Of a stretch of 64,000 bases of DNA, positions 82 through 50,417 are shown one piece after another. The stretch is from the NCBI RefSeq assembly GCF_988243305.1, contig NZ_OZ547136.1; one strand, 5' to 3'. The stretch's first letter is position 1, and each line of letters begins with the position of its first letter. The notes under the pieces are model-generated. The model saw only the letters and a list, made by a program, of their open reading frames with translations. It did no database searches and was not told the origin of the DNA. The position numbers were made by a program, and so were the translations under genes.

Positions 82-485
82 ACATTAGCGATGTAGCAAA
101 AATTACCGGCCTGACCAGCAAAGCCATTCGCTTCTATGAAGAGAAGGGGCTGGTGACGCCGCCGATGCGCAGCGAAAATGGTTATCGAACCTACACGCAG
201 CAGCATCTCAACGAACTGACCTTACTGCGCCAGGCGCGCCAGGTGGGCTTTAACCTGGAAGAGAGCGGCGAACTGGTGAATCTGTTTAACGACCCACAGC
301 GTCACAGCGCCGATGTAAAACGGCGCACGCTGGAGAAGGTAGCGGAGATCGAACGGCACATTGAGGAGCTGCAATCCATGCGCGACCAGCTACTGGCGCT
401 GGCGAATGCCTGCCCTGGTGATGACAGCGCCGACTGCCCGATTATCGAAAATCTCTCCGGCTGCTGTCATCATCGGGCGGGGTGA
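78..485 (+). CDS. cueR: MerR-family copper-responsive regulator CueR
   Basis: 135-aa ORF; N-terminal MerR HTH ([25 protein letters not shown]) and C-terminal Cys motif ([10 protein letters not shown]) recognised. Confidence 0.9.
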
Positions 486-488
486 AAA

Positions 489-692
489 TCAGTTAATCCC
501 CGTTTGCACCGAAAGAATATGCTGCAAACTTTCTACCATAATGCGCCCCGACTGAAATAAGCCTTCCTGGATTTCGTTGTTAACATTCACAGCGTGAACC
601 AGGGAGGCTAATAACACCACTTGCAAGAAGGCAAAAATAAACGCACCGATAATCATAATATGCGTCAGGGGGATTTTCCTTTGCTCCTTCAT
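489..692 (-). CDS. hypothetical small membrane protein (67 aa)
   Basis: ORF with one hydrophobic helix (IMIIGAFIFAFLQVVLLASLV); its ATG overlaps the stop of the upstream lipoprotein gene (ATGA at 689-692). Confidence 0.4.
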   Translation of the reverse strand: MKEQRKIPLTHIMIIGAFIFAFLQVVLLASLVHAVNVNNEIQEGLFQSGRIMVESLQHILSVQTGIN

Positions 693-1111
693 TTTAAATA
701 ACCCACAAACTGACCTTCTTTCATTAAGGCGACTTTTCCTGTGTGATGATAAACAATGACGTTATACAGACCTGACTGATAAACAGTGGCATCTTTATTG
801 TCTTCATCAATTGCACATAATGAATCATTGAGATAAGCAAAGTTTTTACTGCTCATTCTAAAGGTCATGCCAAATCCTTTATAAATGGCTTTCTTTGCCG
901 CCTGGGCATGTTGTGCGGCTTCTGCATTTTTAAATGCCTGCGCTTCGGATGCACTTAAAATAGCCGTCTGACGCTGTTGTTCTGCGAGATAACAGGTGTC
1001 ATGGCTGACGCCCTGCGCCTGGCAATCTGCGATGCGGGAAGTGGGTGAACTACAGCCAGCCAGTAATATAACCGCCAGCAGGGAAAACGATTTAATGGAG
1101 CTATTCATCAT
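689..1111 (-). CDS. putative lipoprotein (140 aa), co-transcribed downstream of the trimeric autotransporter
   Basis: Signal peptide with lipobox LLAGC; 53-bp gap to the upstream adhesin gene, same strand. Confidence 0.55.
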   Translation of the reverse strand: MMNSSIKSFSLLAVILLAGCSSPTSRIADCQAQGVSHDTCYLAEQQRQTAILSASEAQAFKNAEAAQHAQAAKKAIYKGFGMTFRMSSKNFAYLNDSLCAIDEDNKDATVYQSGLYNVIVYHHTGKVALMKEGQFVGYLK

Positions 1112-1164
1112 TGTTAACCTTAAATAATGTACGGAAAATTGCGAATAAGAAATTGCTGTTAAAA

Positions 1165-2181
1165 TTAGAACGAATATCCCACGCCGACACCCGCACCGAA
1201 ATCAGATTGTGTATCCGCAGAAATACCTGCTTTAAGTACCGTATGCGTTCCGGCATTAAAAGATGTTCCTACAGACACCGCAGATTCACCGTTGAACGTT
1301 CCCGCTCCCGCTGACACCATCATCAAGTCACCGGTTTTCACCTGTGGTTGTGAGGCGATAGCGATGGCAGATGCAGTTCCCGCATTGGCTTCTTTACGAT
1401 TGTCCTCAACTTCGTTTTTCAGAGAATCGAAATGGTTATTGAGCGTGTTAATTTGTTGGCTGTTATCTGCGACCCGTTTTTGCGTGTTGGTTAACTGTTG
1501 CTGCGTTTGTGCGGAATCTTGTCTCAGACTTTCAATTTGCTCATGTGCCTGGACAGACTTCTGCGCCAGACTTTGCATTTGTTTATCGTATTGAGCCCTT
1601 TCTTTTTGCTGTTGTGCTGCCACATCGGTTGTCAGTGCATTCATTTTCTGCCCTTGTTCCGTGGTAGTGCGCTGATTAGCCTCATTTTGAGCCGCCAGCC
1701 TGGCATTAATCATCTCCTGATAATGCGCGGTATTTTGCGTATCTCCAGTCGCGGCGAGCGTTTTTTGTGTGGCTACGATCTGCGCCTGTTGCTCTGTAAT
1801 TTGCGTTTGCTGGGCATCAGTTACCGCAGACTGTCGGGCGTTGATCATGCTCTGATAACGGGCGGTTGTCTGTACATCACCTGTAGCGGCAACGGTTTTT
1901 TGTCCTGCGTCAGGATCTGTCTGGACAGGGGGAGTCTGAGTGGTATCAGGTGTTTCAGAAGGGATGTAGTGATGTTCAGTCAAATAGGTATACGCAGCGG
2001 GGCTGTTGTCTGTGCGTTCTAAAAAGCGGGTAATCTTCTGCTCAATCTCCGATTGCGACATGCCAGAGTTAATGGCTGAAAGCTCTGTTGCCGCCGCTTC
2101 AATGGTATCACCAGCTAAAACAACAGGGCTGGATGTTGCTGAAATTATGAGTGCCAGTAAAGCTACGTTTACAGTTTTCAT
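1165..2181 (-). CDS. short trimeric autotransporter adhesin-like protein (YadA-type C-terminal anchor, coiled-coil stalk)
   Basis: 338-aa ORF; N-terminal signal peptide; C-terminus ...GESAVSVGTSF...FGAGVGVGYSF resembles the YadA membrane anchor; two tandem 45-aa stalk repeats. Confidence 0.7.
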   Translation of the reverse strand: MKTVNVALLALIISATSSPVVLAGDTIEAAATELSAINSGMSQSEIEQKITRFLERTDNSPAAYTYLTEHHYIPSETPDTTQTPPVQTDPDAGQKTVAATGDVQTTARYQSMINARQSAVTDAQQTQITEQQAQIVATQKTLAATGDTQNTAHYQEMINARLAAQNEANQRTTTEQGQKMNALTTDVAAQQQKERAQYDKQMQSLAQKSVQAHEQIESLRQDSAQTQQQLTNTQKRVADNSQQINTLNNHFDSLKNEVEDNRKEANAGTASAIAIASQPQVKTGDLMMVSAGAGTFNGESAVSVGTSFNAGTHTVLKAGISADTQSDFGAGVGVGYSF

Positions 2182-2214
2182 TCATTTTCTCTTGTTCAAA
2201 ATAAGTCGCATTAA

Positions 2215-2231
2215 TGTTTCTATAAGAAACA
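2215..2231. promoter_or_regulatory. inverted repeat TGTTTCT-ATA-AGAAACA in the adhesin/HTH divergent intergenic region
   Basis: Read directly; 7-bp arms; same half-site recurs at 2344-2362. Confidence 0.35.
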
Positions 2232-2343
2232 AATAATATTGTTTTAAGAAATAAACTGCGTTGCAATTTAATCGAAATCTACGCCGCCATTTGTGTGATG
2301 TAAAGCGCATTTTTGTCTGGTGTAAGCGTGAACACCACCAATA

Positions 2344-2362
2344 AGAAACAAAAAATGTTTCT
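2344..2362. promoter_or_regulatory. everted repeat AGAAACA-AAAAA-TGTTTCT in the same intergenic region
   Basis: Read directly; the 10-mer ATAAGAAACA occurs at both 2222-2231 and 2341-2350. Confidence 0.35.
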
Positions 2363-2547
2363 TATATAAATAAAATCGAAAATCATTTTGTGCTCTTTCA
2401 ATGTAAAAAAGAGTAAAGACTTGTTTTGATAAGCGAAATAAATTCTGTTTCTGGACTAAACGTGAAGCGGTTCCTGATGTGTGCTAAAATGCGTTTCTTT
2501 GATAAATCTCAATTTTTAAGAGGTTTACGCCAGGCAGGAAAATTTAA

Positions 2548-2910
2548 ATGAATGAATTTGAGAAGATTTTTAATGAAATGAATCTGGACCGGGCATTGCT
2601 ACCGATCCTTTTTCGTTCGAACCGGTCAACAGTGTGGAAATATTTAAGTGGCGATAGTACGGCTCCTGCCTCAGCTATGTCACTGATTATGCTGTTGCAG
2701 TTAATCCAGAAACGAAACCCCGATCTGTTAGCCGAATGGTTAACGCTTTCTGATTTCACCATTCCGCCAGAAGTTTACCTGGACCAGCCTGATTACTGGA
2801 AAGGGTGGGTGTATACGCAACACAAGGTCAATAAAAACGTCCTGGAATATCTAAAAAAACATTATCCGGATGAAGACCAAAAAAACATGAATAAAGGTAG
2901 TGACGAGTAA
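2548..2910 (+). CDS. hypothetical small protein (120 aa), possible HTH DNA-binding protein
   Basis: ORF divergent from the adhesin gene across a 366-bp AT-rich spacer; helix-turn-helix-like segment RALLPILFRSNRSTVWKYLSG. Confidence 0.45.
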   Translation: MNEFEKIFNEMNLDRALLPILFRSNRSTVWKYLSGDSTAPASAMSLIMLLQLIQKRNPDLLAEWLTLSDFTIPPEVYLDQPDYWKGWVYTQHKVNKNVLEYLKKHYPDEDQKNMNKGSDE

Positions 2911-2929
2911 TTTGCCAATGCCAGTTAAT

Positions 2930-3094
<165 letters not shown>

Positions 3095-11524: not shown

Positions 11525-11531
11525 TGTGATA

Positions 11532-11566
11532 AAGCCGTTTATTTCTACCTGGTAGATAAACGGCTT
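11532..11566 (+). terminator. hairpin downstream of ybbP (AAGCCGTTTAT...ATAAACGGCTT), left edge of the AT-rich island
   Basis: Inverted repeat read directly; weak T tract. Confidence 0.4.
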
Positions 11567-11692
11567 CATTATTAGTGCATCACGTAATTAAAAAATTGTT
11601 ATGCCCAAACATATAATTAATATACATTGCCAAATGAGTTGTTTATTAAGTTTATATTATATAATTAAAATCTATGGAATGGGTATAATCAT

Positions 11693-13696
11693 ATGGGTGA
11701 CATTATATATTTACGCATTACAGGGGAGCAACAAGGGGATATTTCTGCAGGATGCGGGACGCAAGCCTCTGTCGGGAATCGGTATCAACAGGGACATGAG
11801 GATGAAATATTTGTTTTTAGTTTTCATGGAGGAGTAAGTAACACAGGATTTGGCATTAATCATCAAACGATACAATTTTGTAAAATTCTCGATAAAAGCT
11901 CACCGCTGCTGATGAATTGCATTAATAATAACGAACGATGCCGTTTTGAGTTTTATTTTTATCGTATTAATAAATATGGAAAATGGGAAAGGTATTATTA
12001 TATTGAAGTCCGTGGTGCCACGTTAACTCAGAATCAGATTATAATAAAAGAAAATGAACTTGACTATCAATATATAACAATACACTACGAATATATCTAC
12101 TGTAAGCATCTTACAGCCAATACAGAATTTAGTTATTTACTCACACCTGAAAATTATAATCGCCTTTTCCCACCGACGCTCTTACCTGTTGAGGAAAAAC
12201 CAGAAATACCGCCTGAACGAGAAATTATCCTCACCATTGGTGTATTCTTTGATGGCACAGGAAACAATTTAACCAATACGAATTTACGTATGAGTTTTTT
12301 CCAACCAGAAACCTATGGTCTGGATGTCCAGGATTTGGCCTCGTTTAATAAACAATGTATGAGCAAGCAGGGTAAAACGGGATCCGGAGTACAGAGCTAT
12401 TTGAATTACTATACGAATATTCATTGGTTGAATGAGTTGTATCATAAAGATTCAGAAATAAATGCGGGGTCAGTAAAAATTCAACGTGAAATTTATATTG
12501 AAGGAATAGGGACTGAAAATAATAAAGCAGACTCTCTGATAGGAATGGGGTTAGGAAATAATGATACAGGGGTAATTGCCAAAACTGACCGTGCGATATC
12601 ACTGCTCCGTGAAAAACTGACGGAGATTGTTATTTCTTTAAAAGAGAATAAATTAGTAATTAAGTGTCTACAGTTTGACGTATTTGGCTTTAGTCGTGGG
12701 GCAGCAGCCGCACGGCACTTTACTAATCGCGTATTTGAGTGTGATCCCGTACTGATTAAAACCATTACGACGGCATTTCAGTCAGTTGAATATTTAGGTA
12801 AACCTTCCGGGGAAGTGCAATTTTTAGGTATTTTTGACACAGTTGCAGCCATCGGAGGGCTGATGGATGGTTTTGACCCTCATGATGGTAATAACTTTCC
12901 GGTAAAAGTGAAGTTACCGCCAGGTGTGGCCAAACATGTATTCCAGCTCACAGCAATGAACGAATGTCGCTATAACTTTTGCCTCAACAGCATAAAGGAA
13001 AGCTGGCCAGAATTAAGTTTCCCTGGATCTCATGCTGATATTGGTGGCGGCTATGACCCACTGGAAGATGAGTACCTGTTTTTAAGTCGCCCGGCGATTG
13101 CAACGGTACTGGGAAATGTGCCGGTGGAAGCGACAAGCGCTTACCAAAAAGCAGCACAGCAGGCAGAGTTATTGTGGCGCTATTCGACGCTGGCTCCGAT
13201 TCTGCCTTCTGGTGTCCTAAAAATTGAATCCAATATTGATGAAATAGCGTCGCCTGACCACTTAGGTAATGTGAGAAAACGGGTCGCTGCAGCGGTGACA
13301 TTTCGCAGAACGATCACCAATGACTGGTCAAAGATTGCGTTAAGAGTAATGTATGAAGTCGCTAAAGAGGCAGGGGTAGTATTTGATGCCATTTCTGTTG
13401 CTGATAAGGAATTAAAAGTTCCCAGTCATTTAAAGGTAATATGTGAAAAAGCAATTTCTCAGGGTAAAGCCGTTCTCTTGTGTACAGCGCCGATACCTTT
13501 TTCTGATGATGAGCTTAAAACCATTGGAAAATATATACACTGCTCTTCCAACTGGAATACCGTCGATTATCGATTAAAAAATAAGGTGTCTGCTGAAGTA
13601 TCAGCGTTTAAGACGTTTAGTTTTGTTAATCGGCCGGATGAAAATTGGACCAGAACTATATACGATATGCAAGGGAATAAACAAAATGGAATTTAA
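11693..13696 (+). CDS. Hcp-domain / DUF2235 (Tle1-like phospholipase) fusion protein, putative T6SS-delivered effector
   Basis: 667-aa ORF. Residues 1-~150 align with Hcp (IYLRITGEQQGDISAGCG...GHEDE...SPLLMNCI); FFDGTGN at residues 185-191; GFSRG (GxSxG) with Ser334; FDTVAAIG and HADIGGGY motifs; AT-rich relative to flanks. Confidence 0.8.
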   Translation: MGDIIYLRITGEQQGDISAGCGTQASVGNRYQQGHEDEIFVFSFHGGVSNTGFGINHQTIQFCKILDKSSPLLMNCINNNERCRFEFYFYRINKYGKWERYYYIEVRGATLTQNQIIIKENELDYQYITIHYEYIYCKHLTANTEFSYLLTPENYNRLFPPTLLPVEEKPEIPPEREIILTIGVFFDGTGNNLTNTNLRMSFFQPETYGLDVQDLASFNKQCMSKQGKTGSGVQSYLNYYTNIHWLNELYHKDSEINAGSVKIQREIYIEGIGTENNKADSLIGMGLGNNDTGVIAKTDRAISLLREKLTEIVISLKENKLVIKCLQFDVFGFSRGAAAARHFTNRVFECDPVLIKTITTAFQSVEYLGKPSGEVQFLGIFDTVAAIGGLMDGFDPHDGNNFPVKVKLPPGVAKHVFQLTAMNECRYNFCLNSIKESWPELSFPGSHADIGGGYDPLEDEYLFLSRPAIATVLGNVPVEATSAYQKAAQQAELLWRYSTLAPILPSGVLKIESNIDEIASPDHLGNVRKRVAAAVTFRRTITNDWSKIALRVMYEVAKEAGVVFDAISVADKELKVPSHLKVICEKAISQGKAVLLCTAPIPFSDDELKTIGKYIHCSSNWNTVDYRLKNKVSAEVSAFKTFSFVNRPDENWTRTIYDMQGNKQNGI

Positions 13697-14345
13697 TATA
13701 AAATTACTGTTTGTTATTACGTCTATGGTTCTTAACTTTAACGCAGCAGCGAAAGAAAAAATATCGTTGCTTGCACCCTATGATGAGTGGTATTTCAATT
13801 TTTTCTACCCTGATTCCCTACCAGCAAAAGTTACCTATGTGGAATTATTAGATACCGATGGCATCTATTATCAGTTCAGAACGCTGGCCAGTACTAATGC
13901 CAGTCCAGGAAGTGTTGGACAATGGAGCGAGAAAGTATCAGGGATGTCGTCAGTTTTTAATAAAGCCAAAAACCCACCAATGTCTATCCATTTTTGCTGG
14001 GATTCAGTGATTGATAAAAAAGTGTATGAAACCTGGATAACGCTGGCGGGAGACGTCTGGAAATTGATGCTCACACCTTATTCACCACCAGGCGATGGCA
14101 GTGAAAAATATTATCTACAGTATCTGTTAATCGGACTGGCTCCGGAAGGAAAAGTACGGGTATGGCTTGATAAACGTGACAAACCCAATATTCGCCTGAC
14201 GGATAAGCAGATTCTGATAGAAACGTTTTCAGGTGAAAAAATGGAAATGTGTAAAGGAATTTCCCGGCATGATTTTTCTCTTGGAGACGATGAATATGTT
14301 CTTGAGTTTATCAAAGATAAAAAATATCCCTATGGTAACTGGTAA
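13686..14345 (+). CDS. putative periplasmic immunity protein, copy 1 (219 aa, signal peptide)
   Basis: Start overlaps effector stop by 11 bp; cleavable signal peptide without lipobox; paralogue of next gene. Confidence 0.6.
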   Translation: MEFNIKLLFVITSMVLNFNAAAKEKISLLAPYDEWYFNFFYPDSLPAKVTYVELLDTDGIYYQFRTLASTNASPGSVGQWSEKVSGMSSVFNKAKNPPMSIHFCWDSVIDKKVYETWITLAGDVWKLMLTPYSPPGDGSEKYYLQYLLIGLAPEGKVRVWLDKRDKPNIRLTDKQILIETFSGEKMEMCKGISRHDFSLGDDEYVLEFIKDKKYPYGNW

Positions 14346-14351
14346 GTAACA

Positions 14352-15020
14352 ATGAAAATAATAGCTAAAATAATTTATAGATTAACCATTGCGTTAATGA
14401 TAGCCGGATCAGTCCAGACAGCAGCGAAAGAAAAAATATCGTTGCTTGCACCCTATGATGAGTGGTATTTCCTTTTTTTCTACCCTAATGCGCTACCGGC
14501 ACGAGTTACCTATGTAGAACTATTGGACACTGATGGTATCTATTATCAGTTCAGAACGCTGGATGCTACCGCTCCGAGTTCCACAACTATTGATCAATGG
14601 AGAGATAATCTTCGGGTTGGGGTGTTATCATTCAATAAAGCTAAAAATCCCCCTATGTCTATCCATTTCTGCTGGGATTCAGTGATTGATAAAAAAGTGT
14701 ATGAAACCTGGATCACGCTGGCGGGAAAAGTCTGGAAATTGATGCTAACACCTTATTCACCACCAGGTGGTGGCAGTGAAAAGTATTATCTGCGGTATCT
14801 GTTAATCGGGCTGGCTCCGGAAGGGAAAATAGGAGTGTGGCTGGAGAAACCTGATAAACCCAATATTCGCCTGACCGATAAGCAGATTCTGATAGAAACG
14901 GTTTCAGGTGAAAAAATGGAAATGTGTAAAGGCCGAAGTGTCTATAAAAATGGGTATTCTTACCCGGAAAGTACAAAAAACTTTATCAAAGATAAAAAAT
15001 ATCCCTATGGCAACTGGTAG
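14352..15020 (+). CDS. putative periplasmic immunity protein, copy 2 (222 aa, signal peptide)
   Basis: Tandem paralogue of 13686-14345 with long identical peptide blocks (KEKISLLAPYDEWYF; KAKNPPMSIHFCWDSVIDKKVYETWITLAG) and divergent middle and C-terminus. Confidence 0.6.
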   Translation: MKIIAKIIYRLTIALMIAGSVQTAAKEKISLLAPYDEWYFLFFYPNALPARVTYVELLDTDGIYYQFRTLDATAPSSTTIDQWRDNLRVGVLSFNKAKNPPMSIHFCWDSVIDKKVYETWITLAGKVWKLMLTPYSPPGGGSEKYYLRYLLIGLAPEGKIGVWLEKPDKPNIRLTDKQILIETVSGEKMEMCKGRSVYKNGYSYPESTKNFIKDKKYPYGNW

Positions 15021-15071
15021 TTAACCAGTTGCACAATTTCTTAAAGAGGCACGGAAAAGCATTTTTGTGGG

Positions 15072-16193
<1,122 letters not shown>

Positions 16194-48659: not shown

Positions 48660-49292
48660 TTATATTAATTCATATAATTTGGCATAGTCGATAAGCTCTA
48701 CAATTGAATGCAAACCTAGCTTGCCATAAATATTAGATTTATGCGCACTAACTGTTTTATTGCTAAGTAATAACTTATCGGCAATTTCTTTATTAGATAA
48801 TCCGCTAACCAGATAACGTAATATGGTTACTTCACGATTAGATAGCACAGTGACCGTTGAACTATTCGTACTACATTTATTGCTTTTTATATAGTTGAGC
48901 GTTTCGCTGGGAAAAAAAGTGTATCCGGAGAGGATCATCTGAACGGCATGAAAAATATCATTCTGATCATTGCATTTACTGACAAAACCGTTAGCACCAG
49001 CTTGTATCGCTCTGCCAGCATAAAAGCATTCTGATTTCGATGATAAAAATAATACTTTCACTGTACTCTGAATTTGTTTGATCCTTTTCAGGAAGGTAAA
49101 ACCGTCTGTACCGGGCAAGTCTATATCCATAATGATTAAATCAACAGGACGGGTTCGGAGATAATCGATGGTTATGCGGTAATCATCCGTTTTCAGGACA
49201 ATCTGCAATTCACTGTTTTTTTGCAACAGAACTTCAATAGACATTCTGATGATAGGATGAGTATCCATAATGATCACCGACGTTGGTTTCAT
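48660..49292 (-). CDS. fimZ: LuxR-family response regulator FimZ
   Basis: Receiver domain plus LuxR HTH; start at MKPTSVIIMD (210 aa). Confidence 0.85.
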   Translation of the reverse strand: MKPTSVIIMDTHPIIRMSIEVLLQKNSELQIVLKTDDYRITIDYLRTRPVDLIIMDIDLPGTDGFTFLKRIKQIQSTVKVLFLSSKSECFYAGRAIQAGANGFVSKCNDQNDIFHAVQMILSGYTFFPSETLNYIKSNKCSTNSSTVTVLSNREVTILRYLVSGLSNKEIADKLLLSNKTVSAHKSNIYGKLGLHSIVELIDYAKLYELI

Positions 49293-49533
49293 AGTTACCA
49301 GTCTCATTGGATCGGACAATTTTCCGTTAGGGCGGTAAATTGTACTTGATACATGAAAATACGGGTTTTCTTGATTCAGACGCGCAGCGGTGTGCGTTTG
49401 TTTGCCGCTATAACGAAATAAATCAGAAAATCAGACGCGGTCGTTCACTTGTTCAGCAACCAGATCAAAAGCCATTGACTCAGCAAGGGTTGACCGTATA
49501 ATTCACGCGATTACACCGCATTGCGGTATCAAC

Positions 49534-49610
49534 GCGCCCTTAGCTCAGTTGGATAGAGCAACGACCTTCTAAGTCGTGGGCCGCAGGTTCGAATCCTGCA
49601 GGGCGCGCCA
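49534..49610 (+). tRNA. argU: tRNA-Arg (anticodon UCU)
   Basis: 77-nt cloverleaf GCGCCCTTAGCTCAGTTGGATAGAGC...GGTTCGAATCCTGCAGGGCGCGCCA with CU-UCU-AA anticodon loop. Confidence 0.95.
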
Positions 49611-49655: not shown

Positions 49656-50417
49656 TCACCACATCACTTTTTGTCGCTGTTTGGCGAGATAATTCAACGG
49701 TGTCAGGCCGTAAAACGCCTTAAAAACAGAGATAAAGTACGACGTGCTGCTATAGCCACATAATTGCGCTACCTGAGTGATATTTTTGTTATCCATCAAT
49801 AACATCTGTACGGCGTAACGCATACGACACTCTGTGACAATCTGGCTATAGCTGGTATTTTCGTTTTTTAATTTCTTTTTGAGCAGGCTGGGGCTTAAGC
49901 ATAGCGAACTGGCGACAATTCGCAGATTCCAGTAATGCTGAATATCGCTTTGAATAATGCGGCAGACGCTGTCGCGGACGCTGCTGCGTAAGATATACAT
50001 CAGTAGGGCAATAAACCGCGATTGCTCAAGAAAGTTAGACAATACGGTAAAAAGCAATGCGCGCGTCAACTCCGCTTCGCAGGGTTTGCTGGGTTGCTGC
50101 TTGCTGTGGTTGGCGGCTAGCCGGAACACTTCCGGTGTACGGCTATGACAAGCGATAACCGGGGTAGCCAGCCGCGACCAGGGCTTTACGCAGGTTAAGT
50201 TCTTATTTAAAAACAACAGATAATCGTTGATGATGTTGCGGTTGATGTGGGTGATTAATACGTGATTTAACGTTGAGAGTTCAATGACGTTATTGTTGCA
50301 CGCGAAGGCGGCCAGGTAATTTTTCGGAAGGGTAAACGTGGCATGGTTATTGACGCTTACCTCTACCTCTTTTTCGGTCAGGATCACCACGCAAGGTTCA
50401 CTGCTGCTCAATTGCAT
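49656..50417 (-). CDS. envY: AraC-family transcriptional regulator EnvY
   Basis: 253-aa ORF with C-terminal AraC HTH. Confidence 0.8.
   Translation of the reverse strand: MQLSSSEPCVVILTEKEVEVSVNNHATFTLPKNYLAAFACNNNVIELSTLNHVLITHINRNIINDYLLFLNKNLTCVKPWSRLATPVIACHSRTPEVFRLAANHSKQQPSKPCEAELTRALLFTVLSNFLEQSRFIALLMYILRSSVRDSVCRIIQSDIQHYWNLRIVASSLCLSPSLLKKKLKNENTSYSQIVTECRMRYAVQMLLMDNKNITQVAQLCGYSSTSYFISVFKAFYGLTPLNYLAKQRQKVMW

Follow-up and report, generated by a model that had tools for sequence, protein, structure and literature searches.

The definition of Hcp proteins that carry a toxin at their C-terminus (Hcp-ET) goes back to Ma et al. (2017, Virulence 8:1189), as summarised in reviews (PMC6730261, PMC6099711, PMC10433429). 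According to the same reviews (PMC6730261, PMC6099711, PMC10433429), Hcp-ET2 of enterotoxigenic Escherichia coli (ETEC) PE321 (A31K_02346) carries a DUF2235 domain and takes part in interbacterial antagonism that depends on a type VI secretion system (T6SS) and proceeds by Tle1 phospholipase activity; its immunity protein is ETI2, and it is listed as a Tle1/Tli1 pair. In addition, DUF2235-bearing specialised Hcps were coloured in the Hcp tree of Howard et al. 2021. Here, we examined a 64,000-nucleotide stretch of an E. coli chromosome (the whole stretch is hereafter called the window; contig NZ_OZ547136.1 of RefSeq assembly GCF_988243305.1), in which the gene at positions 11693-13696 codes for an Hcp domain joined to a Tle1/DUF2235-type lipase and is followed by two candidate immunity genes. 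We are highly confident that this locus is a three-gene T6SS effector-immunity module of the published Hcp-ET2 class.

Like Hcp-ET2 and ETI2, the locus combines an N-terminal Hcp and a C-terminal DUF2235/Tle1 domain in one polypeptide with immunity genes directly downstream, and like Hcp-ET2 it occurs in E. coli and other Enterobacteriaceae and is encoded outside the main T6SS cluster. We found no difference in kind from Hcp-ET2; the window has a rare allele with a recombinant tract of ~240 bp. The original prediction, made from the letters of the sequence, had proposed a candidate specialised T6SS effector of the Hcp-ET class. This proposal is supported, Hcp-ET2 being an Hcp fused to a DUF2235/Tle1 domain. 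The module as such is already known: its class is published, it is annotated in RefSeq and it is common in E. coli. Our analysis adds the exact borders of the island that carries it, the finding that this island stands in place of rhsD between ybbP and mnmH, a prevalence of ~10.5%, the rare recombinant allele and evidence for exchange of a patch between the immunity genes. The module would act as an interbacterial weapon that probably plays a part when E. coli strains compete in the gut.

Domain architecture and catalytic residues of the effector

The effector gene and its parts are as follows.

11693-13696, plus strand: hcp-ET2-type effector gene, ATG start; 667 amino acids, 75 kDa Hcp-Tle1 fusion, no signal peptide
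11693-12139, plus strand: Hcp/TssD tube-subunit domain of the short-loop type, residues 1-149, 17.5 kDa; matches to TIGR03344, PF05638 and PDB sequences
12140-12208, plus strand: linker with a Pro/Glu-rich stretch, residues 150-172, LTPENYNRLFPPTLLPVEEKPEI, then PPERE ahead of the first lipase beta-strand
12209-13693, plus strand: Tle1/DUF2235 alpha/beta-hydrolase phospholipase domain with its C-terminal domains, residues 173-667, 495 amino acids, 54.9 kDa
12692-12694, plus strand: codon of the nucleophile Ser334 in GFSRG (GxSxG); aligns with S197 of the 6SJL chain; invariant
12836-12838, plus strand: codon of Asp382 in FLGIFD (FxGxxD motif, PMC10395195); aligns with D245 of the 6SJL chain; invariant
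13031-13033, plus strand: codon of His447 in ELSFPGSHADIG (ExxxPGxHxDIG motif); aligns with H310 of the 6SJL chain; invariant

The predicted open reading frame (ORF) of 667 residues at 11693-13696 was found intact, with an ATG start, and the motifs from which its identity had been proposed lie at the predicted residues (FFDGTGN at 185-191, GFSRG at 332-336 with Ser334, FDTVAAIG at 381-388 and HADIGGGY at 447-454). In the Hcp part, GHEDE was located at residues 34-38 and KSSPLL at 68-73. RefSeq labels this gene 'tssD' or 'Hcp family type VI secretion system effector', and names such as 'tssD' or 'Hcp family effector' conceal the lipase part of the product.

That the first ~150 residues are Hcp was borne out by profile searches. 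NCBIfam TIGR03344 (TssD) matched above its curated cutoff (125.3 bits, cutoff 58.9), with residues 1-149 covering profile positions 1-163 of 167, and Pfam T6SS_HCP (PF05638) matched residues 6-138 (E=2.2e-12, profile positions 1-128 of 129). The N-terminus also matches the PDB sequences 3HE1 (Pseudomonas aeruginosa Hcp3), 6A2V and 5MXN, among them the Vibrio cholerae Hcp of the sheath-tube model. Judged by these matches, the Hcp domain of the fusion is a predicted full-length Hcp fold, and compared with canonical Hcp/TssD proteins (3HE1, 6A2V and a 159-residue Hcp encoded near aspV, discussed below) the fusion has the same full-length fold plus a C-terminal extension of 518 residues. A word-indexed search for homologs of the Hcp domain by itself gave mostly partial proteins, and no canonical Hcp parent of this domain was clearly identified in it.

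The presence of a DUF2235/Tle1 lipase after the Hcp domain was likewise confirmed, by PF09994 and by full-length homology to a protein of solved structure, Tle1 of enteroaggregative E. coli (EAEC; EC042_4534; 6SJL and 6SKI). The Pfam model PF09994 (Tle1-like catalytic) matched residues 369-459 (E=3.7e-10), with a second, weak fragment at 239-344, and phmmer aligned residues 173-661 with positions 30-541 of the EAEC Tle1 chain 6sjl_D (E=6.1e-123) without large gaps. Further PDB sequence matches of the lipase part were 6SKI, 9J3F and 4O5P. Thus, the fusion resembles EAEC Tle1 in homology over the whole length of the lipase and in having the same catalytic triad, and the EAEC immunity protein Tli1 is also a DUF2931 protein. 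Unlike the fusion, EAEC Tle1 is a separate cargo that is bound to the VgrG spike, including its TTR domain, in the solved complexes. In the fusion, the Hcp domain and linker stand in place of the first ~29 residues of Tle1, and so delivery would be through the tube subunit.

To assess conservation we used a family alignment of 17 sequences (45-95% identity) from E. coli, Salmonella, Atlantibacter, Kluyvera, Enterobacter, Trabulsiella, Lelliottia, Cedecea, Pseudescherichia and Huaxiibacter. The triad, FFDGTGNN and GFSRGAAAARHF are invariant in 17/17 members, and the linker between the conserved end of Hcp and the invariant FFDGTGNN is Pro-rich and varies in length. The catalytic residues had been predicted to be intact, and indeed Ser334, Asp382 and His447 are in register with S197, D245 and H310 of EAEC Tle1, with their spacing kept and no variation in the family. 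Previous studies showed that the toxicity of V. cholerae Tle1 is lost on mutating the GxSxG serine or the aspartates of the FxGxxD and ExxxPGxHxDIG motifs, that the toxicity of P. aeruginosa Tle1 needs the triad S235-D279-H377, and that Tle1 family members are toxic only in the periplasm. The effector gene is under purifying selection, with a ratio of nonsynonymous to synonymous divergence (dN/dS) of 0.39-0.46 for the whole gene; outside the recombinant tract described below, the sub-regions (Hcp, pre-tract and downstream lipase) give 0.16-0.38.

An AlphaFold model built from the shallow 17-sequence alignment was of low confidence (predicted local distance difference test, pLDDT, 59.9; predicted template modelling score, pTM, 0.49), with pLDDT <50 at linker residues 162-172. 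In Foldseek searches its best matches were 6SKI and 6SJL, followed by Hcp structures, many of which were matched with TMt 0.6-0.77. The model is uninformative on the arrangement of the domains, and the Foldseek retrieval adds nothing past the sequence evidence.

Immunity genes

Two genes of one family follow the effector gene.

13686-14345, plus strand: immunity candidate 1, DUF2931, 219 amino acids, annotated as 'DUF2931 family protein'; PF11153, E=2.9e-27; Sec-type signal peptide without Cys
14352-15020, plus strand: immunity candidate 2, DUF2931, 222 amino acids; PF11153, E=1.5e-26; signal peptide only if translated from Met1
14262-14310 and 14934-14985: C-terminal patches of the DUF2931 genes

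The start of the first gene overlaps the effector stop by 11 nt, and the two genes form a 675-bp tandem duplication whose products are 71% identical. The DUF2931 domain makes up EAEC Tli1, which is a lipoprotein of the outer membrane, and the Tli1 proteins of V. cholerae; these proteins provide immunity to Tle1 lipases. By their Pfam matches, the two genes 3' of the effector are assigned to this Tli1-type immunity family. Neither NCBIfam models nor solved structures matching the DUF2931 proteins by sequence were found. In contrast to the lipoprotein EAEC Tli1, both proteins of the window have a hydrophobic N-terminal Sec-type signal peptide and no lipobox cysteine, immunity protein 2 when read from Met1.

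The annotated start of the second gene differs between genomes: it is Met16 (14397 of the window) in NZ_CP148331.1 (L001, 5998-6621), which drops the signal peptide, and Met1 (14352) in NZ_CP107117.1. The Met16 start is probably a misannotation of the start codon, Met1 being more plausible.

Near their C-termini, the immunity paralogs bear one of two patches of ~17 residues, either GRSxYKxGYSYPESTKN or GISRHDFSLGDDEYVLE. With the two patch types lettered A and B, the combinations in three strains were B/A (the window), A/A and B/B, with no tie to the toxin tract. This distribution suggests that the patch has been exchanged between the tandem immunity copies by gene conversion.

Genomic location of the island

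The window is part of an E. coli chromosome with the gene order cueR...tesA-ybbA-ybbP-[island]-mnmH-allS-allA-allR-gcl. The island and the sites in and next to it are listed here.

11534-15090, no strand assigned: AT-rich effector-immunity island between ybbP and mnmH, 3,557 bp, three genes
11529-11569, plus strand: inverted repeat (hairpin) 3' of the ybbP stop, 14-nt arms, 93% complementary, spanning the left junction 11533/11534
11588-11617, plus strand: best sigma-70-like promoter match 5' of the effector gene, TTAAAA-18-TATAAT, a consensus match only
15010-15032, plus strand: terminator-like hairpin that overlaps the stop of immunity gene 2 and lies where the immunity and mnmH genes converge

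The sequence is homologous to K-12 up to 11533, nine bases past the ybbP stop, and again from 15091, in the last mnmH codons. The effector gene had been described as AT-rich against its flanks, which agrees with our values: its GC content is 39.8% (island 39.2%), against 58.0% on the left (ybbA-ybbP), 51.6% on the right and 50.8% in the whole window. Neither a tRNA, nor an integrase, nor flanking direct repeats marking the island were found, and therefore it shows no sign of being a self-mobile element. The number of promoter-like sites in the region was not above shuffled expectation.

In K-12, the ybbP-mnmH site is occupied by rhsD-ybbC-ylbH-ybbD-ylbI-ylbG. Rhs proteins are polymorphic toxins linked to delivery by T6SSs, and immunity genes and orphan fragments come after them. 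Because the same site holds the Rhs toxin rhsD in K-12, the island is one alternative occupant of a toxin-exchange hotspot. It shares with the RhsD element the ybbP-mnmH(selU) site; unlike RhsD, which is an Rhs/YD-repeat cage, the protein of the window has an Hcp scaffold, and the two have no sequence relationship.

At the right junction, which lies in the last mnmH codons (15072-15090, minus strand), MnmH is 368 residues long compared with 364 in K-12, and its C-terminal tail differs.

Distribution in E. coli and other Enterobacteriaceae

In 569 of 5426 complete E. coli genomes, at least 80% of a query consisting of the island and both flanks was present. An internal segment of the gene, 301 bp long (12400-12700), matched 573/5426 of them (~10.5%), on the chromosome every time, and carriers of the common allele include isolates of sequence type 131 (ST131). 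One genome, NZ_CM190131.1 (L009, 5374-10153), has the same locus with the hcp-ET2 gene split by the insertion sequence IS1 and with three DUF2931 genes rather than two; here the toxin is inactivated and the immunity array is retained or expanded. A DNA-level search for a stand-alone T6SS-1 tle1 paralog matched only this same locus, with one copy disrupted by IS1.

Beyond E. coli, proteins of ~660 residues with the PF05638+PF09994 architecture occur in Salmonella, Enterobacter, Kluyvera, Atlantibacter, Lelliottia, Cedecea, Trabulsiella and others, with >100 homolog clusters listed. The homolog search also returned stand-alone DUF2235 proteins that are 52-57% identical to the lipase part, and the Tle1 toxin seems to switch between an Hcp-fused and a cargo format. 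A 549-residue protein of Salmonella enterica (P0055), annotated as 'DUF2235 domain-containing protein', is 69-70% identical and starts within the Hcp domain, of which only the last ~35 residues are left; rather than a true stand-alone Tle1, it is probably an Hcp-ET2 whose N-terminus is truncated or whose start is misassigned.

A rare allele with a recombinant tract

The effector of the window is 95% identical to the common E. coli allele (633/667 residues), and most of the differences cluster at residues 248-266 and 307-325.

12431-12670, plus strand: recombination tract of ~240 bp, codons ~247-326, in the lipase domain; sets the rare allele apart

Synonymous divergence (dS) from the common allele is 0.24-0.87 within this tract and about 0.02 over the remainder of the gene, and from this contrast we conclude that a tract of ~240 bp, at roughly 12431-12670, was imported. 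The allele is rare: over segment 12400-12700, identity among the 573 carriers was 100% in 1, 90-95% in 19 and 80-90% in 553. Within the tract, the window sequence is closer to two Salmonella-like homologs (P0041 and the above P0055) than to the common E. coli allele.

Because the window departs from the common allele both in the lipase tract and in the C-terminal patch of immunity gene 1, we also considered a matched switch of toxin and immunity specificity. This idea is not supported, as in NZ_OZ547043.1 both immunity genes bear the 'variant' patch although the toxin tract is the common one. Because this genome combines the common tract with variant patches, the immunity patch shuffles independently of the toxin tract.

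It is unlikely, in our estimate, that the rare allele, i.e., the tract together with the variant patch of immunity gene 1, represents a new toxin-immunity specificity type that evades the ETI2 of the ~550 genomes with the common allele. If it did, such a type would allow killing among carriers of Hcp-ET2.

Secretion apparatus

A candidate apparatus was found in NZ_CP148331.1, which is 99.8% identical to the window across the island, with one amino acid change in the effector. This genome has a complete T6SS adjoining aspV, about 385 kb from the island, that includes tssB, C, E, F, G, J, K, L, H, A and M, tagH, vasI, a gene for a VasL-domain protein, two hcp, two vgrG and PAAR. The cluster (2,009,000-2,043,700 of NZ_CP148331.1, L006) contains two distinct Hcp genes, coding for 172 and 159 residues. 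The Hcp domain of the fusion is only about 35% identical to cluster-encoded Hcps. With the 159-residue Hcp it aligns over the full length (35% identity) and has the same short loop, whereas the alignment with the 172-residue Hcp takes an 8-residue gap in the loop. Because of the full-length alignment and the short loop shared with its 159-residue Hcp, the aspV cluster is probably the launcher of the fusion, and the most likely one.

Effector candidates of the aspV cluster itself are a PAAR-like protein with DUF2169, a DUF4123 adaptor with two hypothetical proteins, and a protein with a C39 peptidase domain.

Proposed mechanism and alternative explanations

In the proposed mechanism, the Hcp domain would let the fusion enter, or sit on, the Hcp tube of a T6SS whose genes lie elsewhere on the chromosome, probably the aspV-linked one. 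Sheath contraction would expel the fusion into a Gram-negative neighbour's periplasm, where the lipase may hydrolyse membrane phospholipids and thereby cause depolarisation, permeabilisation, lysis and death of the target cell. In the periplasm of sister cells, the exported DUF2931 proteins would bind and inhibit the lipase. We infer the delivery, lipase and immunity steps from the protein families and the literature.

It should be noted that several observations weigh against assigning the locus to the Hcp-ET2 class with this mode of action. The assignment is drawn from architecture, species, family and the reviews, and the AlphaFold model, with its pLDDT of 59.9, is silent on how the domains are arranged. 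No T6SS genes were found within the 64-kb window, and we infer the firing apparatus of the window strain from a near-identical genome. The size of the toxin is a further point: addition of 30 kDa to Hcp cargo blocked sheath assembly in P. aeruginosa, and a folded lipase domain of 55 kDa exceeds the known cargo of the Hcp lumen. It is possible that the fusion is accommodated in hetero-hexamers with few toxin copies, by placement at the tube end, or by partial unfolding. How a folded 55-kDa lipase fits into a sheath-enclosed tube is a steric question for the whole class of large Hcp-fused toxins.

The distance of the island from any T6SS cluster would also be accounted for if the effector gene were a silent orphan remnant, either because the AT-rich island is silenced or because the toxin is not secretable, and if the locus were kept mainly for immunity against foreign Tle1 attack. 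AT-rich DNA typical of a xenogeneic origin, promoter-like sites that are not above chance and an immunity gene number that differs by strain would fit such a remnant, as would at least one strain in which the toxin gene is split by IS1 and yet three DUF2931 genes are present. However, the ORF is full-length in ~570 genomes, its catalytic residues are invariant and dN/dS is well under 1 in the Hcp and lipase parts; moreover, Hcp-ET2 is reported in the reviews to be active in competition assays. We therefore consider a remnant very improbable. That the protein is directed mainly at the membranes of eukaryotes (host or protist), acting as a virulence or anti-grazing lipase, is extremely unlikely: many carriers are human isolates, ST131 among them, but two dedicated periplasmic immunity genes beside the toxin speak for an antibacterial role in which siblings are protected, and the Hcp-ET2 phenotype given in the reviews is interbacterial antagonism.

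Other features of the window

Two further features of the window lie outside the island. The gene for tRNA-Arg UCU, argU (49534-49610), sits directly between fimZ (48660-49319) and envY (49656-50417), without a prophage; in K-12, the DLP12 prophage is integrated at argU. A second AT-rich patch (40-44% GC) is located at ~480-3000, between cueR and ybbJ, where K-12 is not known to have such an insert. It includes an ORF at 1165-2181 on the minus strand, and in the collinear NZ_CP148331.1 this patch codes for a YadA-family autotransporter adhesin of 338 residues and small hypothetical proteins.

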